Positions 1-53,028 are shown, counted from the first letter of the stretch. The stretch: DNA of 54,075 nt from a virus (IMGVR_UViG_3300011114_000387:1-54075); one strand, 5' to 3'. Notes: generated by a model not told the origin, from the letters alone. Program-made: numbers and translations.

Positions 1-200
1 GGCCAGCACCGGCACGACTTTGTATGTGTAACTGAAGAACGGCAACGCAAAGTCACGGGCCAAACGGGCGCCCGTGGGCAGGTCGTCGTAGGTAAAAATA
101 AATTGCTGCGAATAGTCGACCGCGTCGTCAATATCTAAACCACGTTTACGGGCATCGCGATAAATCAAATAGCGGAAGAACAAATCCTCAGCTTCGTATG
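1..200. repeat. Terminal direct repeat (copy 1); circular-assembly overlap
   Basis: 1-200 equals 53876-54075 except position 74 (G) vs 53949 (T); falls mid-gene and is exactly 200 bp. Confidence 0.95.
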
Positions 201-3200
201 CTTTGCCAGCGGGCTTGCGCAAGAAGAATGACAGGGCATTGAACACACGGTCTGCTGCCATGCCGGTTTTAGACTCACTCATCTGAGCCATGGCTTTGAG
301 TTGTTCTGGCAACTGGTCCATCAACTCAGAACGGTTAAACGTTCCACCAAACAAGCCGGCTTCTTTGGCTTCGTCGACCATGGCGTCGCCCTTGATCAAG
401 TCGCGCACGGCGCCGGCGTACTTACCCGCGTCCCAATAGGACACGCCGGCAAAGTGGGCCATCGTCAAGTTAGACAATACGTTGTTGGCGTGCGAGACTG
501 GATTGAGAACGGTCTTGCCCTCTTTCCACATTGACAAACCTTTGAGGTACATCTTGAGCAAATCGTTTTGCATCGAGCTGTCAAAGGTGCTGAGCTGGTC
601 CATCACTTCTTTGGGCACCCACTTACCACCAAGCTTGCCGTAACGGCGAACGTTTGCGGTGTCTTCAATTGTGGTTGAAGGGACTTTTACATAGCCCGGC
701 TGCTCTGTGCGGCTGGCGTAATTGGCTGCTAGGTTTTCGTACAGACGGCCAAGCGCTAGATCGCGCTGTGACTTGTTGTAGCCCATGACAAAACGGAACA
801 TGGCATCGCGGATCTCGCCCATGTCGTCACGTTCGTCGCGTGTGTAGTCACGCCACATTGTCACGGTGTCGCTGGTCAAGGGGTCGAACGTGGCATCACG
901 AACTTCCCAGCCTAAGTCAAGCCAGTCTTGCACGTCAGCCACCGGCACGTTCTCAAACATACCGCGAGCCTTAAGACTGTTGCCAGTGATCCCCTGCATT
1001 GTGCGGGTGCGGCCCATCAAACTCTTGGCCGCTTTCATCCATGCTTTTGTTTCGTCGCCAATCTTGGACTCGTAGAAACGCGGCAAGTATTTGCCGTCCC
1101 AGCGACCAGCAGCTTCTGGTGTCAACATGCCAAGGCGTACCAGTTCTGCGGTCTGCTCAGACATGATTGATTGCATTGAGGCGGCCAGTTCCAGCACTCG
1201 CTTGGGCGGCTTGACGCCGCGTTTAAGTTCGCCTTCAATGACATCGCTGATCATCTGGCGCTCTTGCTCTGGCAGGTCTTTAAGTTTTTCGGCTACGTTG
1301 ACCGTAAGGTCTTGAGCCTTTTCAACCTCAGTCTTCATTTTGCGCAGCGCCCGGCTAAGCTCTGGGCTGACTGGCTTCATGCCGATTATGTCGAGAACAT
1401 TGTTGGCCACATCGGCCACAGCCCGATAGGCCTTGGCTCCTGCGCCGAAGCGGAAGCGGCCAGTCTCATCACGGCTAAGAATCCAACCCTCGGTCTGACG
1501 GTTGCTGAACATCATGTCAGCCGGGTTTTCTTGGCGCCACTGAGAAGCGGCTAGGACAAAGGCGTCAAAGTCTTTGTCGCCAAACTCGTCGATTGTTTTG
1601 TAGCCAGCCTCTTCGGCCTTCTGTTGCAGAAAGACTTGTTGTTGCTTGGCGTCTTCGGAAAGCTCGCGCTGCTTTACGGAGTATTGCGGCCCGCTAGGCT
1701 CTTGCCCTCTTTCAGCTTCTCGCTGATTGCGCTGGACATTCTGCTCAGCTTTAGTTTGGCCTCCATCTGCGCGGGACTTAAGCGTGTCGAGGGTTGCGTA
1801 GTAGACGCGTTGGCTGATTCGGCCTGCGTCGAATTCTTCTTCTGTTGCATCTTGGAACTTCTCCAGTAAGCCTTCCCTGCTTACGACGGGGAGATCTGCA
1901 ATATCGATCTCTGCATAGTTGCCTGAACCGCGTGAGTTATCAATCACGTGGATTTTGAATAGTGGGTTATTGCCAAACTCTTGTTGCAGTTGGCGGATAA
2001 CTTGGTTGGAACCAGCGTGCGTTTTAACCAGCGACTCAAGGGTCACTGTTCGTCCGTTCTTTGGGTCCATCGCGCGGTTGAACACGCCGTTTACCAACGC
2101 GTCTACCGGCTCGCGGTATACATGAGCAATTATAACAGACTGCTCTTTGTCGAGCGCGGCCTTGATGTTTCGCTTGGCCTTGTCAATGCTGGACAGCGTG
2201 CCGTCAAAGATTGTGTGCGACTCGTTGAGGATAGGCGCAAGCAAGGCTTCGGCTGAAGATTTACCAGCTCCGCCACCGCCAGACATAAACGTGATCACGC
2301 CGCCCGGCTTGGACTCCTCAAGGCGTTGGTCATACAGCATTTGACTGAATGCGCTGGACGCCTCATGCACTTGCGGTGCAAGGCTGCGGTCTGCGCGGTA
2401 CTCGGGGGACAGGTTGCGGATAAGGTCGACGTCAATCTTCTTACCCTTCTCGGTCCCCTCAATCTCGGAGTACTGCCGAACAGCACCGCCAAAGTCAGAC
2501 AAGATAAGCTGCTCAAGTTTGGCATTGATGTCGTTGGCCCCGCGAGGACTAAAAGCGATTGGCGCACCGGTGATGTCTTTGCCATCTTCGCTAAACGTAG
2601 CGTTCTTGGCCAACACCAGAGGGCCGATCTGAATTACCTCATCAGCCTTGAGCACAGGCTGCATGGTGTCACGGTCGTAGAAGTAGCTGTGTCGGAATGG
2701 GTCCATACCGACCTGTGTCCAAGCCGGGTCTTTGATAGCGGCATCAGCCCGAACCTTTGCGGCTTGGTTGCTAATGGGTTTCCACTTGCCAAGCATGGTG
2801 GCAATAGTGCCTTTGCTTGTACCCTGTGCAATTTTGGTTGCTGCCTTTTGGTTCATGCCAAAAGTTACATCGGTCATTGCTGCTACGGATTCGTAGCCAA
2901 TGACAGTGCCTGCGTCGTAGGCTGCTTGCACTTCACGGTTGGTGGACTTGGGTGTGTGAATGCTAACCACCCACGAGTCATGCTCTTGATACGAAGGAAT
3001 GTCCAAACGTAGCTGGGCAAAGTCGCCTTTGGTTAAGGTGTCTGATGGCAGGCCGTACTTGGCTGCCTTCTCTAGGCTTTGACCACGGCCATTGGCCAAG
3101 GCATATTTAGCGTCGGCTGGTGTTGTAAGCGCAGGGACTTTTTCGTACGGATAGACCGGGCGAAGGTTGTCGACCATGGCGTTGTATTCGTCTTGGGTAA

Positions 3201-4473
3201 TCTTGCCTTCTTGCAAGTCGGTGACGGCTTGCTGCAATTCGTCGGTGCGCTTAAAGCGATCAGAGCTGACATTGGATACGCGGCTTGCTGCTGCGTTCTT
3301 TTGTTCGCGGCGGCTAAGGCTAGGCGCAATTACTTTACGGGCTACAATGCCAAGGCCAACATCAAGCTCGGTTGCATATCGAACTGGGTTTTCTACGGGG
3401 TATAAATATTTAACGCCGCCCGGGGCAATGTCAAACTTGGAATCTTTGGGCACCAAAGTTTGATCTCGATATTGATCAAATTGTTTTTGAGTAGTTACTT
3501 TTATAGGCTCGCCAATTGTTACCGCGCCAATTGCTTTAGCAGGGCCGTCGCCAGTTCTAACAATAGCAACTCGTTTTCCTACATAAGGGCGGAGCGAATC
3601 CGAAGCCCTAGTTTCTAAAGTTTTTTGGCCGTCAACAATTTTATCTGCGTATTGATTTTCACCATCTTGATTGACGTTAATCCCAGTGCTTTCAGTTTGT
3701 TCGCGGCGGCTAAGGCTTATGCCTGCGCCAGCAAACGCGTCACGCAGCGCTTTGGCCCCGTCCTCGGTGCCAATGCGATCGAAGTTGCCCTTAAGCGCAG
3801 CCGCTTGTTCATCGGTCATAGGACCTTTGCTCCAAGGTGCTGCGTCTTCTTGCTCCCTTTCAATGGCTGCGGCCGCTTTGCGCACATCGGCCAAAGGAAC
3901 TGTGGCAAGAAGGTCGGCCTCTGTGCCCTCAGTGAATGAGTACCAGTAACCGCCGTAGCGCGCAGGTTGACGACCGGCTTTTGTAACAGCGCCGCCCCCT
4001 ACGGGTTTACCCGCACGCAGCAAGCTGTATTCACCAAAGCCGCCTTCAGGCACTTTGACTTTGTACACGTAGATGGTGTCTGAGTTAACGCCCTCTGATC
4101 CCGCGCCGGTCTCATCATCGTCGATCATAGAGATGTAGCTGGCCAAGCCTTCGACGCTGGCGGCGTTGGTATTTACGAGGCCTTCCATGTTGGCCAAGCG
4201 AATCACGGTAATAGAGTCACCGGGCTTGGCTTCAAAGACATCGGGTTTTTCTGTACGGGGCCAGTCTTTAACCGGCGTTTGTCGGCCGCTAAAGGCTACG
4301 TCAAAAGGAGCGCCCACATCTTCGTCAGCTTTAGGCGCCAGCATTTCTGCTGCACGACTGGGCAGGTATTGTTCAAGCGCGCCTTGAAGAAGAAATTCTT
4401 TAAGTGCGGGTATGCCCTCAACTGTGGTGCTCTTACCGTCAGCACCAGTGAACGTGTATTTACAGGTTGCCAT
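1..4473 (-). CDS. Giant polyvalent internal virion protein B, N-terminal 1491 codons (continues across junction into 53875-52988; total 1786 aa). Domains: unknown, ASCH/PUA, unknown, zeta-toxin-like P-loop kinase, helical region, LPD38-like C-terminus
   Basis: Hand-translated from ATG at 4473 (MATCKYTFTG...) with no stop to base 1, in frame with ORF 52988..54058; motifs GQKTLETR (ASCH) and GGGGAGKS...FDGTL...GRTV...DNS (zeta-like). Confidence 0.9.
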   Translation of the reverse strand, partial: MATCKYTFTGADGKSTTVEGIPALKEFLLQGALEQYLPSRAAEMLAPKADEDVGAPFDVAFSGRQTPVKDWPRTEKPDVFEAKPGDSITVIRLANMEGLVNTNAASVEGLASYISMIDDDETGAGSEGVNSDTIYVYKVKVPEGGFGEYSLLRAGKPVGGGAVTKAGRQPARYGGYWYSFTEGTEADLLATVPLADVRKAAAAIEREQEDAAPWSKGPMTDEQAAALKGNFDRIGTEDGAKALRDAFAGAGISLSRREQTESTGINVNQDGENQYADKIVDGQKTLETRASDSLRPYVGKRVAIVRTGDGPAKAIGAVTIGEPIKVTTQKQFDQYRDQTLVPKDSKFDIAPGGVKYLYPVENPVRYATELDVGLGIVARKVIAPSLSRREQKNAAASRVSNVSSDRFKRTDELQQAVTDLQEGKITQDEYNAMVDNLRPVYPYEKVPALTTPADAKYALANGRGQSLEKAAKYGLPSDTLTKGDFAQLRLDIPSYQEHDSWVVSIHTPKSTNREVQAAYDAGTVIGYESVAAMTDVTFGMNQKAATKIAQGTSKGTIATMLGKWKPISNQAAKVRADAAIKDPAWTQVGMDPFRHSYFYDRDTMQPVLKADEVIQIGPLVLAKNATFSEDGKDITGAPIAFSPRGANDINAKLEQLILSDFGGAVRQYSEIEGTEKGKKIDVDLIRNLSPEYRADRSLAPQVHEASSAFSQMLYDQRLEESKPGGVITFMSGGGGAGKSSAEALLAPILNESHTIFDGTLSSIDKAKRNIKAALDKEQSVIIAHVYREPVDALVNGVFNRAMDPKNGRTVTLESLVKTHAGSNQVIRQLQQEFGNNPLFKIHVIDNSRGSGNYAEIDIADLPVVSREGLLEKFQDATEEEFDAGRISQRVYYATLDTLKSRADGGQTKAEQNVQRNQREAERGQEPSGPQYSVKQRELSEDAKQQQVFLQQKAEEAGYKTIDEFGDKDFDAFVLAASQWRQENPADMMFSNRQTEGWILSRDETGRFRFGAGAKAYRAVADVANNVLDIIGMKPVSPELSRALRKMKTEVEKAQDLTVNVAEKLKDLPEQERQMISDVIEGELKRGVKPPKRVLELAASMQSIMSEQTAELVRLGMLTPEAAGRWDGKYLPRFYESKIGDETKAWMKAAKSLMGRTRTMQGITGNSLKARGMFENVPVADVQDWLDLGWEVRDATFDPLTSDTVTMWRDYTRDERDDMGEIRDAMFRFVMGYNKSQRDLALGRLYENLAANYASRTEQPGYVKVPSTTIEDTANVRRYGKLGGKWVPKEVMDQLSTFDSSMQNDLLKMYLKGLSMWKEGKTVLNPVSHANNVLSNLTMAHFAGVSYWDAGKYAGAVRDLIKGDAMVDEAKEAGLFGGTFNRSELMDQLPEQLKAMAQMSESKTGMAADRVFNALSFFLRKPAGKAYEAEDLFFRYLIYRDARKRGLDIDDAVDYSQQFIFTYDDLPTGARLARDFALPFFSYTYKVVPVLA
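1674..1850 (-). CDS. Candidate nested +1-frame ORF (58 aa, MQQKKNSTQ...RLSPAQMEAKLKLSRMSSAISEKLKEGKSLAGRNTP) at the end of the zeta-like domain
   Basis: GGAG 9 nt before ATG; spans the end of the domain and the R/E/Q/G-rich host linker; stops at the YS linker motif. Confidence 0.45.
   Translation of the reverse strand: MQQKKNSTQAESANASTTQPSTRLSPAQMEAKLKLSRMSSAISEKLKEGKSLAGRNTP
3300..3717. repeat. 22-bp perfect direct repeat TTTGTTCGCGGCGGCTAAGGCT (3300-3321, 3696-3717) flanking an ASCH domain
   Basis: Read directly; 396-nt (132-codon) spacing; each copy encodes SLSRREQ. Confidence 0.9.
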
Positions 4474-4477
4474 GTGG

Positions 4478-4969
4478 TCAGGCTCCCAGCTCCTGATCGA
4501 TCAAGAGCATGCCTGCCTTGTCGCCGTCCACTAACTGGATGCGGGCAAGCAAATCGCCGTACTCGCCAACGCTGGTGCGCTGAAGCTCCAAGAACTGCAG
4601 CAGGAACTGCTGAACCACGGGGTCGCTACTTGCTTGGGAGTAGTAGTCTTTGTAATTTTTGTAAAGCTCAAGCTCGGTTTCATAGGCCAATTCCATGGCG
4701 TCAGAAAACGACTTAACCGAGGCGGTCATAGCCTCAATCATGGGGACCTTAGCTACACAGCCAACGTCGTTTTGAAATTGGGCGTGCAGTTGGTAATGGT
4801 CCAACTCGGCTTCGCTTTCTTTTAAAAAGAATTTCATTGCACCAAGATAACCAAGGCGCTGCACCTGATTGGCAATGTGCTTGTACAGGTTTGAGGCGTA
4901 AAGCTCAGCGTGGATTGCGTCGTCTAGCATGCGCTTGAGGTCGGCAGAAATGATCATTGTTGGTGTCAT
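4478..4969 (-). CDS. Ferritin (non-heme, FtnA-like)
   Basis: 163 aa, ELYASNLY / FF..ESEAELDH / AYETE / QFL..FLELQ / LLIDQEL pattern of bacterial ferritins. Confidence 0.85.
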   Translation of the reverse strand: MTPTMIISADLKRMLDDAIHAELYASNLYKHIANQVQRLGYLGAMKFFLKESEAELDHYQLHAQFQNDVGCVAKVPMIEAMTASVKSFSDAMELAYETELELYKNYKDYYSQASSDPVVQQFLLQFLELQRTSVGEYGDLLARIQLVDGDKAGMLLIDQELGA

Positions 4970-4978
4970 GGTAAACCC

Positions 4979-7900
4979 TTATTTGCAATTGATTTCAACT
5001 AAGCCAGCGGTGTCCAGCTCGTCAAGGATGTCGAGGAAATTATCCTGCATGTATTGGATCTGAGCCGCATCTGACCGCCGCGCAATCACAGCCTCCGTGT
5101 TGGCCTTGGCCAATCCGCGCTTTTCTAATCCGGCGAAGATGTCTTTGAGGGAGATGCGGTTTCCGATGAAAGTTTCCCGCTCTTCTCCTTGGATCGGGCC
5201 AGCTGGCCCGCTCGGCTGGCCAGCCTGCTTATTTGTTCCCGCGACCGACTCGCCAGCCACTTGTCGTGTTGGTCTTGGTCCAGATTCGGCTGCTGTGCTG
5301 ATTCGTTTTCCATCAAAACCTTCTTTCGTAAGTAGTAATTCTGCCGCACCTGCGTAGTCTTGGCTAGTCACTTGCAGATCAACGCCCAGCTTTTTGTACA
5401 GCTCTTGTTCTGGATACCAGATCAAAGCCTGCAAAGCGGCCGGGGGTACGCGCTTGCCGGTTTGCTCTTCAACCAAAGTCACCAACTGACGGGTTACGTC
5501 ACGTAGACGCTGGCGTTCACCGCCGCTAGAGGGGGAGTCGGTAGGCTTGTCAGCCGATTTAATAATCCCGTTAGACGCACCTACCAAAGCGGTTTTAACG
5601 CGGGCGCCTGAGTCAAACGCAGCCCGCTCTTTGATAAATTGCCGGTTGTGTAGGCTGTATATTTTACGCGCCAAAGCAATTGCGCCCTCGTCGGTTTGTT
5701 GCGCAGCGGCAACATCTTCCGGCTTAAAGTCTGCGGCATAAAGGCCCCGGCTTGAATCGCCGGTCTCAGCCAAAGCGGCGCGCAGCTTGGCCACTTGCTT
5801 GGGAAACAGGACTGGGTCAAACGCTGGCAGCGTACCGCTAAGGCGGCCGATGGTGCGCATGAACCACATGTCCATGGTAATTGGTTCGAAGTTGCCGGTG
5901 AGATTACTGTAAAAGCCGAAGCCAATCTTGGGGCCAAAGATGGCCGAGCCAAGCATCTTCTCATCCATCGACTCAGAGCCAATTGGAAAACCAATAGATT
6001 CCAGCTCACGTTTGGTGAACTCAGTTTGCAAAAAGCGGCGCAGAAGATCCGGCCCCATATCGGCCATCACATCGTTGGCCAATGCAAAGTTCTTAGCCAT
6101 GGCCGGCGCAGATTTGCCTTTGCCGACTTCAGGGAATTTGCCTGTTGCGCGGAAGGCTTCGTATTGACTAGACGCGTAAGTCAGGTTGGCTTCCACGTTC
6201 ATTGTCTGAGAGGCGATGGCAACGGCCATCAAGAAAGCATTGCGTGCGTTCGGGTCCGTGTCCAACTCTGGGTATTTGACAGCCATGATGCGTAGCGTTT
6301 TAGCTACGGTCTCGTCGTACCATTCAACGGCATTGCCGGCGCTGCGGATTGCGCCAACAGCTTCAGCTGCCAACATGCGCGCCAGTGTGCTGCGGTCCTC
6401 GTCTTTGTTGATGTCAAGGGTCGGCATGCCTGAATCGCGGTATCGCTGATCCAGCCATTGAATGGTTTCTGGAATGCCGCCAATGTTGGGGGCGCGGAAG
6501 GTTTTGCCTTTCACACCGCCCAACATTAGGGGCAGAGCACTGGCGTTGTACTCTGCTTGGGAAAGACCGAAGGCGTCTGCAACAGAGCGATAAACGCCTG
6601 TGTCTATTTTGCGCCCGCCGGTACTTTCATCTTTCGCGAGTTCGGCTTCGATGGCGGCGCTGGCTTCTTCGCGGATGCGACGAGCCTCTGTCCGTTTTGC
6701 AAGAAGCTCGGGAGACCCTGTTCCCTCTTGACCATAGTCATACTCCTCTTTGGAGGGGAAGGCCATCTGGCCATCCCCGGTTTTTAAAATAAAGTTTTCC
6801 GGGCGATTGCCAAGAACGCTTTCTATTTTTGATGCAAGGTCGTCCATACTAGCAGAAGGAACGGCCAAAACCATCTCTTGCCCAACCGTTGTGTGGCCGC
6901 TGATGTTTTCTGGCGACACCTGCCGCAAGTCTTGATAAACGGCGTCGACTGATTTTTGATCGACCATGTTTTCTGGCAACGTGATCGTGATCAAACCGAT
7001 AGGTGATGAACCTTCAAAAGGTTTGGAATCCAAAACCATCATGCTGTCTTGAGCTAAACCAAACCCGCCTAACCGAGCAACATCCATGAGCTGCTGAGCA
7101 GATGCCGTGCTTGAAACAAGCGCAGCAAACGAAGGACTTGTTTTTTCAAGATAGCCGCCCAACTGCGGGGTCATCTTAGCCCTAACGCCGGCGAGCTTAA
7201 ACACTTGAGGCATGATCTTCTCAGCAACCCTTTGGCTGATTTCAATCTTGCGTTCAAAAGGCACTGCGTCCCAACGAGCGGTAAGCTCGGTATTGTTAGG
7301 ATCGGGGGCGACCTCAAACATAACCCTAGCGGGTGCTGTTTTCTTGCTGAACCTGACGTCACTGCCGATGCGTTCCAACTCTACGTTGGCTGCGTCGCGT
7401 GAAGTGGCGGGGATCTCCAGATTGCCAGCAGCAACGCGAGCACCCGGTACACGGGAAGCCTTGATGGCGGCCAACTCTTTGGAAAGAAGCCCCTTCTTCA
7501 GCGTTGTGGGTTCGGCTGGTGTAGGGGCTGGGGCACCGGCCACGCGACCCAAAGATCTTACGGGTACGGCAGAGTGGCGCGGGCCCAGCAACACGACGGC
7601 TGACTGGTTGTTCCCAAAGGGGGCCAGATAGCCGTCAAATCCGGCGTTGATTACAGCTGACTCAAAGGCATTGAAGCTGCCCTTTGGTGGAATCAGTTTT
7701 GTTTCGGGGTCGTAGATGTTGTTGAGCTTGGCTTCGTGGGCGATACCTCCGACTCCTGCTTCTGGTCTGACGCCGGAGCCTTGGTCAACATAGAAATAAA
7801 CGCGGTTTTTGAGGCGAGGATCTGGGCTACTGTCCAGCCGATCGCGCTCTGCACCTTTGAGGCCAGTCCCATAATAAGCTCCATTTAACGAGGTACGAGG

Positions 7901-10852
7901 TTGGGTTGAGAAGTGTTGGGCAACGACGGAGACCGCGCCTTGGCGGGCTGTTCCGTACTCTGGGGCTTGACCGCCCCCATCTCCACCAGCGAGTTGTCGA
8001 TTTGACGCTGCAAGTTGCGATATTCCTTGAGTTCCTGTGGTGTCTGCATTTAGGGTTCCTTTGCTGTACGCAATAAGCGCATCTCGAGCAATCACTTTTG
8101 CTTTGCTCAGATCTCGAATGTAAGTGTCAACCAAGGCCGATTCTTTTTGGCCTTGAGTTGGTGTGCCTTTAAGCACGCTCAGCATATTGTCAACGATGCC
8201 AAGCCACTTGTCGACAAAACCCTTGAATCCTTTGGGATCTGTAGCAGCAAGGTCTTTCCAGAATTCTTTGTCGGTGGACCTGTTGCCCAAGAAGTCGGCG
8301 ACCATTTCAGAGCGGGTAGTTGGGGACGCCATCAAGTCTTGAATGCGTTGCTCTTTTGCAACAGGATCTGTGATGCCGGCCAGCTCTTCCGCGTTCAAGA
8401 ACTTTACAAGGTAAGAGCGCTTGCCGTCTTCGGTCATGTCATCAAAGACCGTGTTCACACTGGCAACGTACTGCTGAGCAGGTGTGTCAACCAAACCCTG
8501 TCTGGCTTCGAGCTTAGCAATTTGCTCAACCGTGTGATGGAATTCGTGAATGCTGGTGCGAGCAACGTTGACGTCCACGTTGGCCGTGTTTACGAAAGCG
8601 GCGCCGCCAATGGCAACGCCGTTCAGCGCGTTGGGCCGTGGGTCTATGTAGGCGTAAAGCTTGCCGCCAAATTGGCTGTTGAGAGCTTCGCCAATTTGAT
8701 TGACTGCGCTATCCAGCTCGGCTGGGGCAGCGTTAAAAACCGCTGGGGTTTCTACACCGTTGGAAGTAGCCCACCGGTCGATAGCAACTTGTGCAATTGC
8801 TCTCGCTCCAGCGGCGGCAGACTCTCCTCCCACTGGCGCAATTGCGGTACTAGGCACTTGCGACTCTGGAAGGGCAAGGGTTTTGTCGGCAATGATGCCT
8901 GCGTTTTGGTTGGTTGGTGCATTAGCCAATGGTACGCTAGGAGCGGTTTCAAGTCCAGTGGCTAGGGTAGTATCAGCCACTTCGTTTTGACGCGCTGTAA
9001 GCTCAACTGATGCGCTACGGCGGGTAATTGCTGGGATGGTTTCGTCGCCTGCAATTGTTGTCAGTTGATCGTCTGTCAAGCTGGTAACAGGTTGGCCTTG
9101 GATCTTTTGTGGACGAGGTGGCGTCAAACGCAACTTGTCCAAACCAAACTGTTTTTCGGTAGCAACATCTGGTTGAAGGGGCGCGTTGGCATCAAACGTT
9201 GGTTCGCCCGTTGGCGGCAACGGAGGCAAAGCCAAGCCCGTTAAAGAGGGCTCAATTGCGCGAGGCAACGGGGGTAAGGCCAGATTTGTTAAAGTGGGTT
9301 CAATTTGGCCGGGCAAATTAAGCGGCTGCAAATTGATTGGGGGCAAGTTGACCGTTGGGATACCACCAGCCAACTCAGCTGCTGCCGTTGCTGCGCTGCT
9401 TGCGTCTGTGGCGGTAAAGATCGTGCTGGTATCGACCGGCTCGACGTTGATTTTGCCAATGTTTAGATTGGTTGGCGCGTTGCTAAAAGGACTCAGCTGC
9501 TGGCGGGCTAACTCATCTATTCCAGTAAACTGGGTGTTGGCCACGTTTTCATTGATGGCTTGCGCAATTTGATTTTGAGGCTCGTAGCGGCCGGTCAAAA
9601 TACCGGCTGTTTGTGGGGAGGAAATAAGGCCGCCGCTAACCGCGCCAACAATGGCTGCGTCTTTCAAACCCTTAGTCAGCTCGATGTCCTTGCCTTGGAA
9701 ATACTTGTCCAAAACATTGCCGCCAAATTGAGCAGCTGTTTCTTCAATGGCATTAGTCACGCTAACAATAGTCTGTTGGCCGCCGGCTTGCAAAAGTCTT
9801 TGACCGGCAACGGCCAAAACGGAACTTTGCTTAAGCGGCGATAAGCCTTTAAGCGCATCGCCAATTTTGTCAAAGGCTTTTAATGGCAGCATTTCGGTGC
9901 CAACTTCAACCAATCCTTTAGCCGCAGCAATCATTGCTGGGTCACCTTGGACATAGCTTTGGCCAGCTGAAGTGGCGCCCATAGAAGGCAACAAAACCGC
10001 ACGTAACGGCGGCGCAAACATGGCAGCCATTGACATGCCGGTTGATTGCAAATTAGCTGCAAGTTTGACGCCGAGCCACTTGCCAAATTCTTCTCTGGCA
10101 ATAGCGCCGTCCGATGAACGGCTGTTAATCTTTGGCATGTACTCAGCCGCTGTCTTTGTCAAATACTCAGTACCAAACATCTGGCCAACTTTAGGCAGTG
10201 GTTGCATGCCAGCAGCCTGAAGCAAAGGATTAACTGTAAAGTCGTTAAACAGTTGGGCGGCAACGGTCGGAGCATTGATTGTTCCTGCTAGGCTTGACGC
10301 CATGCCAGCTTGAAGAGCACCGGTCAGTGGGTTCTCTTCGCCAAAACGTTGACGACGCAAAGTCTCGGAGTTGCTTTCAAAGGTTTCGGCTTCTTTAGCC
10401 TTATCAACCAAATCAAAAAAGCTGGTTTCTTTAGCCTGCTCACGGGCCTTGGCCACGGTCAACACCGGACCCGGTTCGATCGGGATCATGCCGCGTCGCA
10501 TCTCGTCGGCCTTGGCCACGGTCTGCAAACTAACAGGACCAGCGCCGTAGCTCAAGCGTTTGTTAAGGTCGGCTTGCCGCTCTTCAACCGTGGGCTGATA
10601 GGTCTCCATCACGCTCTTGTAAGGCGTAAACTTTTCAGCAAGGGCAGCGGGGATGTTGGAAACAGTACCTTTGACCGTCTCAAACGCGCGTGAGATCAGG
10701 CCTTGGGGTTCAGGCGGTGGGGGCTCGGGCGCTTTGTAGCGCGCGGCCAAACGTGCGGCATCATCCCCGGTATCACGAACTTCAAAATCTTCGATTGGCC
10801 TAAACGTTAGGCCGCTATCTTTTTCAAAGTCTGAAAGCGGAATAAAGCGCAT
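4979..10852 (-). CDS. Giant polyvalent internal virion protein A (1957 aa): HExxH metallopeptidase, ADP-ribosyltransferase-like, possible SAM-lyase-like and HhH DNA-glycosylase-like domains
   Basis: ORF track; HEFHH...EMVADF; QHFS...VYFY...AGFDGY; VARLGGFGLAQDSMMV; WYD...GPKIG..FY.NL...TMDMWFMR...QALIW. Confidence 0.85.
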   Translation of the reverse strand: MRFIPLSDFEKDSGLTFRPIEDFEVRDTGDDAARLAARYKAPEPPPPEPQGLISRAFETVKGTVSNIPAALAEKFTPYKSVMETYQPTVEERQADLNKRLSYGAGPVSLQTVAKADEMRRGMIPIEPGPVLTVAKAREQAKETSFFDLVDKAKEAETFESNSETLRRQRFGEENPLTGALQAGMASSLAGTINAPTVAAQLFNDFTVNPLLQAAGMQPLPKVGQMFGTEYLTKTAAEYMPKINSRSSDGAIAREEFGKWLGVKLAANLQSTGMSMAAMFAPPLRAVLLPSMGATSAGQSYVQGDPAMIAAAKGLVEVGTEMLPLKAFDKIGDALKGLSPLKQSSVLAVAGQRLLQAGGQQTIVSVTNAIEETAAQFGGNVLDKYFQGKDIELTKGLKDAAIVGAVSGGLISSPQTAGILTGRYEPQNQIAQAINENVANTQFTGIDELARQQLSPFSNAPTNLNIGKINVEPVDTSTIFTATDASSAATAAAELAGGIPTVNLPPINLQPLNLPGQIEPTLTNLALPPLPRAIEPSLTGLALPPLPPTGEPTFDANAPLQPDVATEKQFGLDKLRLTPPRPQKIQGQPVTSLTDDQLTTIAGDETIPAITRRSASVELTARQNEVADTTLATGLETAPSVPLANAPTNQNAGIIADKTLALPESQVPSTAIAPVGGESAAAGARAIAQVAIDRWATSNGVETPAVFNAAPAELDSAVNQIGEALNSQFGGKLYAYIDPRPNALNGVAIGGAAFVNTANVDVNVARTSIHEFHHTVEQIAKLEARQGLVDTPAQQYVASVNTVFDDMTEDGKRSYLVKFLNAEELAGITDPVAKEQRIQDLMASPTTRSEMVADFLGNRSTDKEFWKDLAATDPKGFKGFVDKWLGIVDNMLSVLKGTPTQGQKESALVDTYIRDLSKAKVIARDALIAYSKGTLNADTTGTQGISQLAASNRQLAGGDGGGQAPEYGTARQGAVSVVAQHFSTQPRTSLNGAYYGTGLKGAERDRLDSSPDPRLKNRVYFYVDQGSGVRPEAGVGGIAHEAKLNNIYDPETKLIPPKGSFNAFESAVINAGFDGYLAPFGNNQSAVVLLGPRHSAVPVRSLGRVAGAPAPTPAEPTTLKKGLLSKELAAIKASRVPGARVAAGNLEIPATSRDAANVELERIGSDVRFSKKTAPARVMFEVAPDPNNTELTARWDAVPFERKIEISQRVAEKIMPQVFKLAGVRAKMTPQLGGYLEKTSPSFAALVSSTASAQQLMDVARLGGFGLAQDSMMVLDSKPFEGSSPIGLITITLPENMVDQKSVDAVYQDLRQVSPENISGHTTVGQEMVLAVPSASMDDLASKIESVLGNRPENFILKTGDGQMAFPSKEEYDYGQEGTGSPELLAKRTEARRIREEASAAIEAELAKDESTGGRKIDTGVYRSVADAFGLSQAEYNASALPLMLGGVKGKTFRAPNIGGIPETIQWLDQRYRDSGMPTLDINKDEDRSTLARMLAAEAVGAIRSAGNAVEWYDETVAKTLRIMAVKYPELDTDPNARNAFLMAVAIASQTMNVEANLTYASSQYEAFRATGKFPEVGKGKSAPAMAKNFALANDVMADMGPDLLRRFLQTEFTKRELESIGFPIGSESMDEKMLGSAIFGPKIGFGFYSNLTGNFEPITMDMWFMRTIGRLSGTLPAFDPVLFPKQVAKLRAALAETGDSSRGLYAADFKPEDVAAAQQTDEGAIALARKIYSLHNRQFIKERAAFDSGARVKTALVGASNGIIKSADKPTDSPSSGGERQRLRDVTRQLVTLVEEQTGKRVPPAALQALIWYPEQELYKKLGVDLQVTSQDYAGAAELLLTKEGFDGKRISTAAESGPRPTRQVAGESVAGTNKQAGQPSGPAGPIQGEERETFIGNRISLKDIFAGLEKRGLAKANTEAVIARRSDAAQIQYMQDNFLDILDELDTAGLVEINCK
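5125..5313 (-). CDS. Candidate nested +1-frame ORF (62 aa, MENESAQQPNLDQDQHDKWLASRSREQISRLASRAGQLARSK...) after the glycosylase-like domain
   Basis: AAGAAGG 5 nt before ATG; internal start of track ORF 5125..5349; lies over a host linker. Confidence 0.45.
   Translation of the reverse strand: MENESAQQPNLDQDQHDKWLASRSREQISRLASRAGQLARSKEKSGKLSSETASPSKTSSPD
6604..6735 (-). CDS. Candidate nested +1-frame ORF (43 aa, MVKREQGLPSFLQNGQRLVASAKK...)
   Basis: AAAGAGGAG 7 nt before ATG; at the boundary between the SAM-lyase-like and glycosylase-like domains. Confidence 0.35.
   Translation of the reverse strand: MVKREQGLPSFLQNGQRLVASAKKPAPPSKPNSRKMKVPAGAK
7885..8049 (-). CDS. Candidate nested +1-frame ORF (54 aa, MQTPQELKEYRNLQRQIDNSLVEMGAVKPQ...) in the linker between the metallopeptidase and ART-like domains
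   Basis: AAAGGA 7 nt before ATG (same SD as several bona fide genes here); amphipathic-helix-like N-terminus. Confidence 0.5.
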   Translation of the reverse strand: MQTPQELKEYRNLQRQIDNSLVEMGAVKPQSTEQPAKARSPSLPNTSQPNLVPR

Positions 10853-10854
10853 GT

Positions 10855-11907
10855 TTATTTCCCAACGTAACCACGAACTACACCGCTTGCGTCTTTGACT
10901 TCCCAGCCACGACTCGTGTAGCTACCAACAGTTGACCCGGCAGGCGCGCCCTTAATATTTGCAATGTTAGGTTTAGGGGGTGTTGTTTCAGCAGCAGGGG
11001 CCTCTTCTTCTTTGGCCGTTTTGGCTGTCCACTGGTCTAGCTTAGAACGAGCTGCTTTAAGCTGGTCTCGATTTTCTTGCAAATCTTCAAGCTTGGCTTT
11101 TGCTTTTGGATCTGTTGCGGCTTTCTTTTCAAGGCGCGCAATTTCTGGGTAAAGCTCTTTGGTTGACACACCCAATTTTTCAGACAAAGCATCTTTGGCC
11201 GATTCAACTTGGCGCTGCAAGTCAGCAGTAGTCTCGCGGGTGTTTCGAGTTTTACCTTCTTTGTTGGCACGAGTCTCAGCAGTAATTGCGTTCTTAGCCA
11301 TTGTTTCAGAGTTCTTAGCCAAGATGTCTAAACGCTCGGCAGTTTGACCGGTCACTGTTTCAAAACGATCTGCCCGAGCGGTTTCTTGTTTTTCTTTAAA
11401 CTCTTGTTTGATTTCGTCAAGAACTGCGGACCGTTGTTTTTGAAGATTGAGAATGGTGGTTGAATGAGAACCCGCCGACATAGCAGCAGCGATGGCGCCC
11501 TCAGTGCGCTCAAGGCTTTCGTTCTTTTTTGAAGCAACGCCAGCTTTCTCGTAGGCTTGTTTCAACTCAGGCCGCTCAGTTAGCATCTGCTTAATTTCGT
11601 CCTCTGACATGGAGGGCGTGCGGGATGCAACTTCTTTAACCACCCGGTTCATGGGTATATCTCTGGCAACTTCTTGTGCGGCAGCGGTTTCTTTGATCAC
11701 GCGCTGTTGCAACTCTTCTGCTTTTTTCTCAGCGGCTTCGTCTTTGATGCGCTGGGCTTCTTCCATCCGACGGATGTAGTTTTCTTCTTTACGGCCTTCG
11801 GCTTCTAGTTGACGTTGATACTCAAGGTCTTTCATCATGGCTCCGCCAATTGCTTGGCCAGCGCCCATGATTCCTTGGCCGATCCCGCTCCAAATAAGTC
11901 CGCCCAT
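10855..11907 (-). CDS. Internal virion/ejection protein (coiled-coil, Gly-rich N-terminus)
   Basis: 350 aa, Cys-free, MGGLIWSGIGQG..., just upstream of the giants. Confidence 0.65.
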   Translation of the reverse strand: MGGLIWSGIGQGIMGAGQAIGGAMMKDLEYQRQLEAEGRKEENYIRRMEEAQRIKDEAAEKKAEELQQRVIKETAAAQEVARDIPMNRVVKEVASRTPSMSEDEIKQMLTERPELKQAYEKAGVASKKNESLERTEGAIAAAMSAGSHSTTILNLQKQRSAVLDEIKQEFKEKQETARADRFETVTGQTAERLDILAKNSETMAKNAITAETRANKEGKTRNTRETTADLQRQVESAKDALSEKLGVSTKELYPEIARLEKKAATDPKAKAKLEDLQENRDQLKAARSKLDQWTAKTAKEEEAPAAETTPPKPNIANIKGAPAGSTVGSYTSRGWEVKDASGVVRGYVGK

Positions 11908-12414
11908 TTAAGCCTCCTGTGCGGCCATGCGGTTGAACTCTTCTGGGTCCACCTGATCCATGGCTTGTTGCAGTTGTGTTGTGTCGACGCCTTGCTCACC
12001 GAGGAATCGCAAGATCATTTGTTTTAAGGCCAGCGCAAGATCGGAGGGCTTGACAGGAATATTTGCAGCTTCCGCAATTGAAGCAATCTCTTCCAAAATG
12101 TTGGTGGCCAACAAGGCCAACAACTCATCTGGCACGGCGCCTTCTGTGCGCTCGTCAATGATGGACATCATTTCGTATGCGGTGTTGCTTAAAGCATCAA
12201 CGGGATTTTTGTTTGCCCGCAAACTTATTGCAATATCTTTGGCGGCTTTCTTTGAGTAAAGAGCCGTCATTGCAAGCTCAAGCGCAGCTTGATAGCCCGG
12301 GTCCGAAGCGTCCTTCTCAGGCGCAGGAGCCGCCTGTTGCTCGGGCGCAGGCATAGGCGCAGGAGCCGCCTGTTGGTCAGGCATAGGCATATTTTGTTGA
12401 ATGAGTCCAGCCAT
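11908..12414 (-). CDS. Hypothetical virion-associated protein
   Basis: 168 aa, AAAAGGAAG SD, duplicated QQAAPAP. Confidence 0.7.
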   Translation of the reverse strand: MAGLIQQNMPMPDQQAAPAPMPAPEQQAAPAPEKDASDPGYQAALELAMTALYSKKAAKDIAISLRANKNPVDALSNTAYEMMSIIDERTEGAVPDELLALLATNILEEIASIAEAANIPVKPSDLALALKQMILRFLGEQGVDTTQLQQAMDQVDPEEFNRMAAQEA

Positions 12415-12426
12415 GATGACTTCCTT

Positions 12427-13176
12427 TTAACCAAAGAGGCGAGTATTGATATTTTTGTTGTAACGGGCACGTGCGTCGGCCGACAGCTTCTCTTGACGCT
12501 GGGCTTCTTGCTGAGCACCGTAGCCTTGCATTGCACCACCGATAAGCTGAGTGCCGCCAGAGATAGCGGCGTACTGGCCATAAGGACCTAAGCCGCTCCA
12601 AAAACCAGATGACGCTGGCGCAGCTGCCGTGTTAAGGGCTGAAAGAGTTGAGCCCACTGGAAGAGTACTGGCTACACCGGCAGAATTTAAACCGGCTGAA
12701 GCGGGAATGTTTAAACTTGCTGCGCCGGGTACTGTTGTGCCACTGGTCAACGCTCCGGGTGTGGACGTCAAGCCCGTTGCACCGCCGGTGCCGGCAGTCA
12801 GACCGGTTCCGCCTCCCATAGCACCGGTTACCAAGCCGGCAGGCGCTGTGGTTGCAGCACCAGCAGCGCTTGCACCAGTAAAGCCTGAGCCAAGAGCCGA
12901 GCCAGCCGCGCCAACATTACCGGCCATTAAAGAGCCCCACGCGGTTGAAACCCCCGTGGCCGCCCCCGATAGCCCAGCGGAGGCCCCTGTAAGGAAGCTG
13001 CCTCCCGCAGCGGAAGCACCAAAGCCCCCCATCAAAGCGGCACCGCCAAAATAAACAGCTGCTGCGGTTAATAAAATTTTGCCCAAACTAGAACTGGCGA
13101 CGCTTTTAACAACGTTTACTACACCGTTAACAACGCCGGAAATGGCTCGGCCAATTCCTTTAACAACTTGACTCAT
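12427..13176 (-). CDS. Gly/Ala-rich pilot/ejection protein
   Basis: 249 aa, hydrophobic Gly-rich segments, position in ejection cluster. Confidence 0.6.
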   Translation of the reverse strand: MSQVVKGIGRAISGVVNGVVNVVKSVASSSLGKILLTAAAVYFGGAALMGGFGASAAGGSFLTGASAGLSGAATGVSTAWGSLMAGNVGAAGSALGSGFTGASAAGAATTAPAGLVTGAMGGGTGLTAGTGGATGLTSTPGALTSGTTVPGAASLNIPASAGLNSAGVASTLPVGSTLSALNTAAAPASSGFWSGLGPYGQYAAISGGTQLIGGAMQGYGAQQEAQRQEKLSADARARYNKNINTRLFG

Positions 13177-13625
13177 ACAGCAACCTTTCTTATGTAGGAG
13201 AGATTTAAGGATTCACGCTCAAATCCCGCCCGTTTTAAAAACTTTACAAGCCGAGGATCGGCACTTGGCTCCAGCTCCAATACAGCTACTTTAATGGCTG
13301 ATCGGCTTTTAACCCATCTAGCAAACTCACGCAACAACGGCAGCCCAGCTCCGGGTACCCGGCTGTAGTACAGCAGCACAGAGCACTGAAGCTTTTCAAA
13401 CCAGAACGACGGTTGGACCACGGCACCTACTGCGGCGACCACCTTGCCCTCGACCTCCGCAACCCACACGAAATGGGCCGGATTGATTGCAGCTCTGGTG
13501 GTCTGCTCCATGGCTGCACGATCAATCTTGACGGGCAACGGGTTTTGAGACACAGACTCCACCGCCAAATCGACGATAGCCGGAACATCGTCTAATTTGG
13601 CTTTGCGGCAAACAATTTTGGTCAT
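13173..13625 (-). CDS. GNAT-fold acetyltransferase-like protein
   Basis: RKAKLDDVPAIVDL, VWVAEVEGKVV, FLKRAGF. Confidence 0.75.
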   Translation of the reverse strand: MTKIVCRKAKLDDVPAIVDLAVESVSQNPLPVKIDRAAMEQTTRAAINPAHFVWVAEVEGKVVAAVGAVVQPSFWFEKLQCSVLLYYSRVPGAGLPLLREFARWVKSRSAIKVAVLELEPSADPRLVKFLKRAGFERESLNLSYIRKVAV

Positions 13626-15445
13626 GGTGCACCGCCGCCATCGCCGCCTTGACCTGCGGCGCTATACGAATCGTCGGTCGTTGTAGCTCCTCTACCGGCA
13701 ACCTTGGTAGTTGCGGCATCCGTGGTCGCTGTAGATCCACCACCTGAGGTCGTTGTAGATCCACCGCCTGTGGTCGTTGTAAAATTAAGCTTTGTCACGG
13801 GAGTGTTGTAAACCGTTGCGGCCCAAGAAAGGGTAGCGTTGCCAGCATCTATGGCATTTTGAACAGCCGTTGCTTTAGCTGCCGCATCCAAGTCCCCATT
13901 TAGGGCAATAGCGTTGATGGAATTAAGCGTTGCTGCGGCGGTGTTCAAATTAAAGGCTGTTCCAACGTTGGTTGCATTTGCAGCAATTTGCAAATCTGCA
14001 ATTGCTTTTTGTTGAGTACGGTCTAGCTGATTTTGCGTAGTAGTGTAAGTCTGTTGGGCTGTTTGCAACGCGCTGTTGGCCGTGATTTGTTTATCAGCAA
14101 TTGCTGATTGTTGAGTGCGGTCCAGCGCGTTCTGCGCACTGGTAAAGGTCTGTTGAGCCGTGGCCAAATCTTGTTGAGCCTTGATGCTTTTGTCTGTAAG
14201 GACAACCTCTTGAGCACGGGTCAAATCGTTTTGCGCACTGGTAAAAGTTTGTTGGGCTGTTTGCAAAGCTGCGTTGGCCGCGATCTGACCTGCTTGCAAA
14301 GAGGCGTTGGCCGCAATTTGGCTTGCTTGCAAATTTTGACTAGACGTAATTTGAGCGTTAGAAATAGCGGTTTGCTGCGCGCGATCCAAAGCGTTTTGCG
14401 CAGAGGTAAAGGTTTGTTGAGCTGTGGCCAAAGCTTGCTGGGCCGCAATGCTTTTGTCTGCAAGAACTACTTCTTGAGCACGAGCTAAACCGTTTTCTGC
14501 ACTGGTAAAAACTTGCTGGGCTGTTTGCAAAGAAACTTGCTGCGCGCGGTCCAAAACGTTTTGCGCACTAACAAAAGTTTGTTGAGCTGTTTGCAAATCG
14601 CTTTGAGCCTTGATACTTTTGTCTGTAAGGGCAATCTCTTGAGCACGAGCCAAACCGCTTTCTGCGCTGGTAAAAACCTGCTGGGCTGTTTGCAAGTCTT
14701 TATTAGCTGTGATTTGTTTATCAACAATTGCTGTTTGCTGCGTACGGTCCAGCGCGCTTTGCGTGCCGGTAAAGGTTTGCTGCGATTCTTGCAAAGCTTT
14801 TTGGTTTACACGTTCAAGTTCGTTTTGAGCCCCAGTAAAAACCTGCTGCGCATTTTGCAAAGACTTTTGGGCTTCGATGCTTTTATCTGTAAGAGAAACT
14901 TCTTGGGCACGGTCTAAAGCTTTTTGAGCACTGGTGAAATTTTGTGTTGCTAGATTTTGCTCAGACGAAAAAGTCTGACCGCCCAAACGCTCAGCCGTTT
15001 GAAACTCGCGGCCAGCTAAATTTTCAGCTGCTGCGAATTTCTGTGCACCCAACTGCAACCCGTATTTGTTTTGCTCACCAGCATTGGCCAAGCCTGTCGT
15101 ATTGACAGCGCCCATGTTGGCAAGAGCTCGGTTGGAATAGATCTCAGCATCTTGCTGAGCAATGGGCGTGGCGCGGTCGATCATGGCGGCGACACCGGCA
15201 CCGGCTGACATGGAGCTGTTGATCAGCCCGCGCTGGTTCATATCTTGCAATGCTTGCGTGCGGGCACGCTGCATCAAGGGGCTGTCTTGGGCAAGGATAG
15301 ACTCAAGTTGACCGGCTGCGGTCTCAGTACCGGCTTGCACTGCGCGCTCTTGCGCGGTGTATTGGGCAGCGGCTGTGTCCGTGGCCGGAGTCAAAGCTCC
15401 GCCAGAGATTCCGGTCCGAATATCAAAAGGATTTGCTGTTGCCAT
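13622..15445 (-). CDS. Internal virion protein with 11-residue-based Q/A/T-rich repeats
   Basis: 607 aa; AQQxFTSAQNxLxRAQ recurs at 22/33-aa spacing; N-terminal RGLINSS motif. Confidence 0.75.
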   Translation of the reverse strand: MATANPFDIRTGISGGALTPATDTAAAQYTAQERAVQAGTETAAGQLESILAQDSPLMQRARTQALQDMNQRGLINSSMSAGAGVAAMIDRATPIAQQDAEIYSNRALANMGAVNTTGLANAGEQNKYGLQLGAQKFAAAENLAGREFQTAERLGGQTFSSEQNLATQNFTSAQKALDRAQEVSLTDKSIEAQKSLQNAQQVFTGAQNELERVNQKALQESQQTFTGTQSALDRTQQTAIVDKQITANKDLQTAQQVFTSAESGLARAQEIALTDKSIKAQSDLQTAQQTFVSAQNVLDRAQQVSLQTAQQVFTSAENGLARAQEVVLADKSIAAQQALATAQQTFTSAQNALDRAQQTAISNAQITSSQNLQASQIAANASLQAGQIAANAALQTAQQTFTSAQNDLTRAQEVVLTDKSIKAQQDLATAQQTFTSAQNALDRTQQSAIADKQITANSALQTAQQTYTTTQNQLDRTQQKAIADLQIAANATNVGTAFNLNTAAATLNSINAIALNGDLDAAAKATAVQNAIDAGNATLSWAATVYNTPVTKLNFTTTTGGGSTTTSGGGSTATTDAATTKVAGRGATTTDDSYSAAGQGGDGGGAP

Positions 15446-15460
15446 ATTTGCTCCACAAAT

Positions 15461-15538
15461 GAGAAAGCCGCTTTAAGCGGCCTCTTGCGGGCGCACGGGC
15501 CCCGCAAAGATTTTACGTCAAGAATCGTTTAACAACAA
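15461..15538 (-). promoter_or_regulatory. Late leader A: sigma70-like promoter (TTGTTG-17-TAAAAT) + GTGCGCCC hairpin + terminator-like hairpin
   Basis: -35 15533-38, -10 15510-15, motif 15489-96, hairpin GCCGC-TTAAA-GCGGC-TTTC at 15461-84. Confidence 0.55.
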
Positions 15539-52807: not shown

Positions 52808-53028
52808 AGATATGGACCGAAGACTTTGTGTTGGCCAATCCAAAACTAGCAGCCGATGCAATTGGCTGTCTTATTGAATTGGCCACTGACACACGCAACG
52901 ATACACTAGATGAGATCTCAAAGAAAATAGCCGCCATGCCCGGAGACACGGCGGCTGGCATTGCCCTCTGGGTCAGGGATCAGAAAACTATTTCCGCTCC
53001 TCACCCTCTACCGTCAGACCAGCCTTGA
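52804..53028 (+). CDS. Hypothetical protein, convergent with giant B
   Basis: ATGA overlap. Confidence 0.6.
   Translation: MKIWTEDFVLANPKLAADAIGCLIELATDTRNDTLDEISKKIAAMPGDTAAGIALWVRDQKTISAPHPLPSDQP

Follow-up and report, generated by a model that had tools for sequence, protein, structure and literature searches.

The subject of this analysis is a three-gene arrangement in a viral DNA of 54,075 base pairs (bp), IMGVR_UViG_3300011114_000387:1-54075 (the whole stretch analyzed, hereafter the window), which is an entire IMG/VR virus record with a CheckV completeness estimate of 97% and is a ~54-kb podovirus-like phage. On the minus strand, two genes for giant proteins, which we denote A and B, flank a gap of about 505 nucleotides (nt) that is filled by an open reading frame (ORF) for a ferritin-like protein. 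Each giant contains exactly one cysteine (Cys), and these residues are located at the facing ends of the two proteins, the penultimate position of A and position 4 of B. This pattern had been pointed out in the initial annotation of the DNA, along with a proposed Cys-based head-to-tail link between the two products; the counts on the translated sequences bear out the pattern, with no additional Cys in either giant. The central features are listed below (window coordinates; protein lengths in amino acids, aa).

4979..10852, minus strand: giant A, 1957 aa, ending in ...EINCK followed by the stop codon; the sole Cys is residue 1956
4985..4987, minus strand: codon of Cys1956 of A, the penultimate residue
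4982..5155, minus strand: A-mod, the last 58 aa of A (ISLKDIF...LVEINCK), putative C-terminal docking module
4478..4969, minus strand: ferritin gene, 163 aa, 1 Cys; it starts 9 nt past the stop codon of A, and its own stop lies 4 nt before the start of B
1..4473, minus strand: first 1491 aa of giant B, starting with MATCK at 4473 and running off the left edge of the linear window
52988..53875, minus strand: C-terminal 295 aa of giant B and its stop codon, continuing from base 1 across the circular junction
4348..4473, minus strand: B-mod, the first 42 aa of B (MATCKYTFTGADGK...), putative N-terminal docking module
4462..4464, minus strand: codon of Cys4 of B

The ends of the record carry a 200-bp direct repeat, with bases 1-200 matching bases 53876-54075 except for a single mismatch (G/T) at base 74, and because the terminal 200 bases repeat the first 200, the record is circularly closed. 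When the ORF is read across this repeat, to position 52988, B comprises 1786 aa with Cys4 as the only Cys, as claimed originally. An independent database protein from another contig (P0271, 1786 aa) is 92.6% identical to B over the full length, and the wrap-around reading is thereby confirmed. The mismatch at base 74 alters residue 1467 of B (T or K), and the assembly probably represents a mixed population.

In the rest of the window, Cys accounts for 0.86% of the residues (105 of 12,206 in a crude set of ORFs), and at this rate about 32 Cys would be expected in the 3,743 aa of A and B combined, where 2 are observed. Given one Cys in each protein, the probability that they fall within the last two residues of A and the first four residues of B is ~2.3e-6, and chance is ruled out as the source of the facing-end pattern.

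The pattern is retained in the relatives of this phage. Eighty loci were retrieved from IMG/VR with the C-terminal 500 aa of A as the query. In all 34 loci that hold both genes, A ends with INC, INCK or INCD and contains no other Cys, and B starts with M-x(1-3)-C-[TKR]-Y-x-F, where the Cys, at residue 3-5, is again the only one; the A proteins total 55,144 aa with 34 Cys and the B proteins 52,392 aa with 34 Cys, with lengths ranging from 1632 to 2189 aa for A and from 1117 to 2029 aa for B. Thus, the terminal Cys is kept in essentially all homologs of the split form. Both TGC and TGT serve as Cys codons in these loci, which indicates that selection acts on the residue. The gap between A and B is occupied by an ORF of 156-170 aa in each of the 34 split loci. 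In one relative, 98% identical to the window (L004:11300-11883), A ends in ...EINC because a stop replaces the Lys codon. Some 30 nt past the start of the ferritin gene, this contig becomes the reverse complement of the region equivalent to window positions 4312-4658, which reflects either a fold-back introduced by assembly near the end of the contig or a genuine inversion.

More distant relatives (~50% identity) encode one fused giant instead of two. The gene, contiguous in 25 relatives with complete fused giants (2776-3931 aa), is broken by the inserted ORF in the 34 split loci; 20 of the 25 fused giants lack Cys altogether, and all 25 together contain 7 Cys in 79,374 aa. The notion that a giant split in this manner tolerates a gene inserted at the split fits these observations, given that unsplit relatives exist and are devoid of both the Cys and the end modules described below. 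The A and B blocks occur within the fused giants in differing, shuffled orders, so the giant family is mosaic and multidomain. Single-linkage clustering by flanking context merged nearly all sequences, the loci having been preselected by similarity to A. Near the edges of the blastp blocks shared with the fused giants, short motifs were noticed at A 1165-1169 (...DVRFS...), B 60-65 (...AFSGRQ...) and B 986-990 (...DMMFS...); a longer linker motif from another A-mod protein, P0061, IKSATGN-x-G-x-F-x(4-6)-DIR[FY]S, brought in most of 64 IMG/VR loci, among them many phages. Motifs of this type may be inter-domain linkers or processing sites.

End modules confined to split giants

The terminal Cys residues belong to two small conserved modules, A-mod and B-mod, which the initial annotation had missed. 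A-mod is preceded by a low-complexity linker and ends with the strand motif ...V-x-I-N-C; B-mod starts with M-x(1-3)-C-x-Y-x-F, and past it, the aligned B proteins diverge into differing domains. Profiles of the modules match 36 loci and the window, and none of the 44 loci without the split (E<=0.01): the modules are confined to split giant genes and are absent from fused relatives. They are likewise absent from the fused relatives L084/85 and L151-153. The same holds for the IMG/VR relatives of two further A-mod proteins, P0062 and P0076: those that were found encode fused giants and have neither the modules nor the ferritin gene, and the ORFs matched to P0076 are also Cys-free; for a clade of A-mod proteins ending in ...IKC, searches of viral and metagenome contigs gave either no relative or only fused, module-free ones. 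The cultured Limnohabitans phage DC33, a distant relative, encodes a fused giant of 3125 aa with one Cys. A candidate A-mod within this protein was rejected: the tblastn alignment to residue 1954 is a low-identity extension, and the profile finds no module.

Among 1.84 billion representative proteins, the A-mod profile has 204 matches (E<=0.001), and the counts given here and below cover the 150 that are listed; for the B-mod profile, with 231 matches, they cover 120. The A-mod proteins range from 44 to 3935 aa in length, with the module at the C-terminal end; in most of them, it extends to the last residue. The Cys is last or penultimate in 149 of the 150 proteins, the exception being an apparently truncated sequence, and 140 contain exactly one Cys; the 74 proteins of at least 1000 aa contain 82 Cys in 152,906 aa. 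In a variant clade (9 of the 150), A-mod is followed by an extension of ~13 residues (...LEVNG-x11-SCL), and the Cys is still penultimate. B-mod begins at residue 1-2 in all 120 listed proteins, with the Cys at position 4 or 5, and 112 of these contain a single Cys; the additional Cys of several shorter proteins among the matches listed are located in odd-looking C-terminal tails. No protein with both modules was found among either the 150 or the 120 (0 in both sets), and chains of three or more pieces, which would require such proteins, were rejected on the same counts.

Conceivably, the modules could be a functionless young cassette that spread horizontally and had too little time to change. 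An IMG/VR contig of 53,927 bp (L082) is a mosaic: identity to the window is 80-94% from ~150 nt before the end of A, through the ferritin gene, to roughly 1 kb into B, but only ~40% over much of the remaining A gene, which indicates recombination around the cassette. The contrast between the cassette itself (80-91% identity) and the flanking A gene is what horizontal spread would produce. However, the modules have diverged to 29-44% identity, with F, I and C as the only invariant positions in a diverse alignment of 16 A-mod sequences; the residues adjoining the Cys vary freely in both modules, and synonymous variation is seen in the Cys codons. Together, these observations largely refute a functionless cassette, to which we assign next to no probability.

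A search of 185,579 species genomes gave 4 matches. A-mod is present in three short contigs (4-5.4 kb; L154-L156) of metagenome-assembled genomes (MAGs) labeled Rhodoferax, Cyanobacteriota and Zoogloea; the fourth match (L157) is weak and was not confirmed by the profile. The three contigs are probably phage contigs binned with bacteria, and the hint as to the host is weak.

Predicted docking of A-mod with B-mod

Modeled alone with AlphaFold2, A-mod consists of three helices followed by an unstructured tail of nine residues (predicted local distance difference test score, pLDDT, 89.6), and B-mod is a beta-hairpin and a helix (pLDDT 79.2). Neither module alone matches a solved structure in a PDB fold search (E<=0.001), the best look-alikes in the ESM Atlas score 0.79 and 0.88, under the 0.9 level, and Pfam scans of A and B give no match inside either end module.

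The picture changes when the modules are modeled together. In the co-fold that the initial annotation had suggested, which combines the C-terminal 60 aa of A and the N-terminal 45 aa of B, each fragment being given as an alignment, the interaction prediction score from aligned errors (ipSAE) is 0.80, 0.78 and 0.80, versus 0.00 for the best of 3 controls. Of 80 solved complexes, 58 attain the mark that the pair passes, as do 2 of 110 mismatched pairs; this calibration is rough with user-supplied alignments. The runs share at least 96% of the contacts, and the pLDDT of the partners is at least 86. The module pLDDT is 86-89 in the pair versus 46-49 beside an unrelated partner in the controls, and this gain suggests that A-mod and B-mod are two halves of one domain. 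In the predicted complex, the tail of A becomes a strand against the first strand of B; the lowest-error contacts (A:B fragment residues 55:8, 56:7, 57:6 and 58:5) define an antiparallel pair in the register i+j=63, which places C59 of the fragment, that is, Cys1956 of A, opposite C4 of B in the model, and both Cys are in the list of interface residues. A remembered complex is an unlikely source of this result because neither half matches a solved structure. On the strength of these models, it is likely that A-mod and B-mod dock with each other.

Docking as such does not need a covalent bond: the co-fold passes without one being modeled, and the split NrdA of phage Aeh1 requires its terminal tails for activity, with no covalent bond mentioned in the abstract of the respective work (Crona et al. 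2011, PMC3045599). The association of A and B could thus be purely non-covalent, with the Cys as packing residues or without chemistry of their own. Under this explanation, one would not expect that Ser, Ala or Val never replaces the Cys (in 149 of 150 A-mod and 120 of 120 B-mod proteins) when nearly all other positions of the modules vary, nor that the module Cys is the only one kept in proteins that otherwise exclude this residue. Non-covalent docking alone hence appears unlikely.

Each Cys might also be used separately, for a link to the portal, the capsid or a second copy of the same protein, or as a modification site, with the facing positions as a by-product. The portal, the major capsid protein and the tail proteins have Cys, and in the variant clade, the Cys of A is on the 13-residue extension. 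Against separate use, A-mod and B-mod are always paired in adjacent genes and never combined in one of the listed proteins, and the co-fold pairs precisely the two strands that bear the Cys. We regard this explanation as improbable.

An actual peptide bond between A and B would be expected if the modules were remnants, or a new form, of a protein-splicing system, such as a split intein. The layout of an N-terminal piece, a free-standing gene and a C-terminal piece is that of the 'fractured genes' (PMC2677866); furthermore, the Asn before the Cys of A is invariant in 28 close relatives, and many B proteins start with M-A-N-C. Yet, the Cys are at free termini rather than at the body junctions, the Cys of A being ~57 aa past the junction and that of B ~38 aa before the body. 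No intein family is detected by Pfam, which finds nothing in A and Zeta_toxin, Phage_L5_gp82 and a weak ASCH match in B; the halves are predicted to be helical (A-mod) and a hairpin with a helix (B-mod); other clades have Lys, Glu, Val or Gln in place of the Asn; and the inserted gene encodes a ferritin, not an endonuclease. Splicing is, in our view, highly improbable.

The ferritin gene, the virion context and a proposed linkage

Judging from its sequence matches, the inserted protein is a divergent ferritin. It matches PF00210 with 59.3 bits (cutoff 24.5) over residues 14-146, a full-length ferritin, and its residues 10-161 align with solved ferritins (E 1e-8); with 31.3 bits, it falls well short of the cutoff of 178 for NCBIfam NF007638, the equivalog of bacterial non-haem ferritins, and is not a member of that family. 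The motifs ELYA, NLY, EL.HYQ, YETE and QQfLLQFlE are invariant or nearly so across the 34 copies and presumably contain di-iron ferroxidase ligands. Ferritin-like proteins are carried as cargo by encapsulins, and packaging of the phage ferritin in the head is conceivable.

The initial annotation had missed both the identity of the inserted gene and its constant company with the modules. The ferritin gene is located between A-mod and B-mod in all 34 close loci, in six loci at a greater distance that represent three sub-clades (L087-89, L098-99 and L129) and in two of the MAG contigs (L154, truncated at the contig end, and L155), that is, in every locus that extends that far. No ferritin gene was detected in the ~10 kb around any of the fused giants, and neither ferritin (E<=0.001) nor A-mod nor B-mod has a match in 50,697 GenBank phage records. 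The typical spacers, ~9 nt after the stop of A and 1-4 nt before the start of B, suggest coupled translation. Two alternative explanations of the gap were rejected. Stop-codon read-through that would yield an A-ferritin fusion would be possible in the window, where the frame is shared, but the distance varies from 7 to 12 nt across the 34 loci or the genes overlap, and because the frame relation is variable, such fusions are not conserved. An intron or ribosomal bypass was rejected given that the ~505-nt gap holds a conserved ferritin ORF with its own start.

The presence of a ferritin raises the possibility that the modules dock and their thiols bind metal, either in an iron or zinc site or in a four-Cys or [2Fe-2S] center that bridges two A:B heterodimers, with the ferritin supplying or buffering iron. 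A ferritin with invariant residues, presumably of the ferroxidase type, accompanies the module genes wherever the locus extends far enough, and both Cys are predicted to lie at the A-B interface; the ferritin also gives a weak Rubrerythrin-family match, and rubrerythrins join a ferritin-like domain to a Cys4 iron site. But each chain offers only one Cys, neither module has an invariant His, and a metal site would have no need for the strict end position of the Cys, 0-1 residues from the end of the chain in all 149 Cys-bearing A-mod proteins listed. A metal bridge is rather unlikely, although we rate it above purely non-covalent docking.

The possible function of a link depends on the nature of the giants. 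The window encodes the gene set of a short-tailed double-stranded DNA phage, namely the large terminase, portal, major head protein, tail proteins, a 1075-aa tail fibre and an endolysin, along with a DNA polymerase, primase-helicase, helicase and exonuclease; Cys is present in the portal, the major capsid protein and the tail proteins. On the minus strand past the endolysin gene, the products are of 607, 150, 249, 168 and 350 aa, followed by giant A, the 163-aa ferritin and giant B.

10855..15445, minus strand: block of putative internal or ejection proteins (350, 168, 249 and 607 aa), all four Cys-free
13173..13625, minus strand: acetyltransferase-like gene, 150 aa, 2 Cys (phrog_1249, E 1.6e-13), inside the otherwise Cys-free block

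The absence of Cys from the 350-, 168-, 249- and 607-aa proteins had been claimed in the initial annotation and holds; that description had left out the 150-aa acetyltransferase-like protein with its 2 Cys and the 163-aa protein between the giants with its one. The endolysin (149 aa, 15518-15967, minus strand) has 6 Cys (4%), in sharp contrast to its Cys-free neighbors.

Giant B contains a Zeta_toxin-like P-loop domain (residues 754-846, 29.4 bits, cutoff 22.3), a Phage_L5_gp82 domain (residues 520-614, 28.2 bits, cutoff 27) and a weak ASCH match, and among the domains of other proteins with B-mod are ART-PolyVal, RelA_SpoT and LPD38. Giant A has no match in Pfam, PHROG or NCBIfam; its blocks do, however, recur in fused giants together with B blocks, LPD38 and Zeta_toxin (for instance, the fused relative L042 combines LPD38 with Zeta_toxin), and the A-mod protein P0035 combines LPD3, a methylase and a SNF2-type helicase. 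With several unrelated effector and LPD domains per polypeptide, giant B and its relatives are, by domain content, 'polyvalent proteins' in the sense of Iyer et al. 2017 (PMC5512222), and A may be one as well. The earlier wording 'polyprotein' is better replaced by 'polyvalent multidomain virion protein'. In that study, polyvalent proteins are, like A and B, giant multidomain proteins encoded beside virion genes; its main text does not contain the words cysteine, disulfide, split or ferritin. In this phage, A and B are encoded after the tail, lysis and Cys-free internal-protein genes. Among proteins of comparable size, the virion RNA polymerase (vRNAP) of phage N4 is described as being ejected through a tail channel of 30-45 A, and a beads-on-a-string pre-ejection state has been proposed for this protein (PMC13434306, 2026); and phi24B gp47, of 2811 aa and with LPD domains, has been proposed to be a capsid-packaged ejection protein (bioRxiv 10.64898/2026.04.10.717836). 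Both are proteins of multiple thousands of residues with a known or proposed location in the head, which may also apply to A and B; unlike A and B, each is a single chain. Neither 'cysteine' nor 'disulfide' occurs in the main text of the N4 paper.

These observations can be combined into a mechanism. A and B would be two pieces of one polyvalent virion protein that in relatives is a single, mostly Cys-free chain of 2,800-3,900 aa, and the break in this lineage would be occupied by a three-part cassette, A-mod, the ferritin gene and B-mod. A-mod and B-mod would form the halves of a small composite domain that restores the bead-to-bead continuity of the unsplit giant, the last strand of A pairing antiparallel with the first strand of B such that Cys1956 of A is directly opposite Cys4 of B. 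Once the particle is outside the cell, in oxidizing surroundings, the two thiols would form an inter-chain disulfide, yielding an almost linear beads-on-a-string chain of ~3,740 aa; because the Cys lie 0-1 residues (A) and 2-4 residues (B) from the chain ends, the linked product would be topologically near-linear. Such a chain could be packaged 1:1 and pass a narrow tail like the unsplit protein, and after entry, the cytoplasm of the host would reduce the bond again. The exclusion of other Cys from the giants, the fused forms and the four upstream proteins would avert stray cross-links during passage through the tail.

Two halves of one docking domain that are stapled by an inter-chain disulfide constitute the best reading of the data, with a probability of roughly one half, which is also how we rate the bond itself. 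A disulfide is the simplest chemistry because it explains the invariance and the terminal position of the Cys together. The bond, the time of its formation and its role in ejection are what we infer from the anatomy of the locus, its conservation, its tie to the split and the predicted docking. The earlier proposal of a Cys-based head-to-tail link is thus partly supported, by the lack of additional Cys, the conservation of the terminal ones and the predicted docking with the Cys opposite each other; its further parts, a disulfide and ordered packaging or ejection, would follow under this reading.

Several considerations weigh against the stapled docking domain. Phages assemble in the reducing cytoplasm, so the disulfide must form late. 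In the variant clade (9 of 150), the Cys is 13 residues past the pairing strand, and its facing of Cys4 is not guaranteed. The 59:4 pairing is extrapolated from the register of predicted contacts, not taken from coordinates, and the calibration counts hold only approximately for user-supplied alignments. Packaging of A and B in the virion and their ejection are suggested by gene order, protein family and analogy. Finally, a disulfide leaves the constant ferritin gene between A and B unexplained.

This last point leads to a more tentative extension, which we consider possible though clearly less probable than the disulfide, namely that the arrangement is a portable split-and-staple cassette in which the ferritin contributes to the link itself and does not simply travel along. 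The cassette would sit harmlessly in a linker of the giant, bringing with it its own two-piece docking domain and terminal Cys pair. For example, iron/oxygen chemistry of the ferritin might oxidize the juxtaposed thiols in the reducing environment of the cell or in the head, or the Cys pair might hold iron supplied by the ferritin.

Implications and comparison with known systems

The split and fused giants look like a natural experiment in which the same protein exists either as one Cys-free chain or as two chains with the sole Cys at the facing ends. The system is common in uncultured freshwater-type phages, judging from the 204 representative matches to A-mod (E<=0.001), and it bears on the open problem of how proteins of multiple thousands of residues are packaged and threaded in order through a tail of 3-4 nm. 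If the ends dock and are cross-linked, it would follow that an unbroken chain is of importance for delivery, there would be a reason why these proteins exclude Cys almost completely, and a two-piece joining module of ~100 aa, possibly redox-switchable, would become available for protein engineering. Should the staple be assisted by the ferritin, the virus would encode the means of making a specific inter-chain bond, that is, a natural covalent joining tag of ~100 aa. The unvarying ferritin points to an unrecognized tie between iron/oxygen chemistry and the assembly of virion proteins. The literature searches yielded no description of such a system of split giants, terminal Cys and ferritin and no cultured phage with it.

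Elements of the proposed mechanism have precedents. In AB toxins and cell-entry proteins, inter-chain or cross-strand disulfides hold the chains together outside the cell and release them in the reducing cytosol; the toxin chains, however, come from a cleaved precursor and their Cys are not terminal, whereas A and B are encoded by separate genes and have the Cys at the chain ends. In polyketide and non-ribosomal peptide synthases, short C- and N-terminal docking domains order successive giant polypeptides; these are non-covalent and not Cys-tipped, and as far as tested by Pfam, they are unrelated to A-mod and B-mod. Inteins employ a nucleophilic Cys or Ser at the extein-intein junctions, where it is the first residue of the N-intein, whereas the C-intein ends in Asn followed by Cys, Ser or Thr of the extein; they excise themselves, in contrast to the modules with Cys at free ends in this phage. 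The fractured genes described in 2009 (PMC2677866) share the three-gene layout, mainly in phages, and their products are rejoined by complementary end modules; there, split inteins surround a free-standing endonuclease gene, not a ferritin gene. The closest parallel is provided by NrdA-a and NrdA-b of phage Aeh1 (Crona et al. 2011, PMC3045599): insertion of mobE was accompanied by new tails that are absent from the unsplit protein and were read as interaction domains, and the authors suggested that such tails may be a general way to neutralize gene fragmentation. As in the split giants, a gene that is contiguous in relatives is broken by a free-standing gene, and the new ends carry tails; in Aeh1, however, the insert is a mobile endonuclease in a single phage, whereas here it is a ferritin, and the modules form a family with 204 representative matches and invariant Cys tips. 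The logic of genes in pieces is known, and the obligatory ferritin, which it leaves unexplained, is possibly a new component; what differs here is the combination of a widespread module family, an invariant terminal Cys pair, a ferritin insert and giant, presumably ejected proteins.

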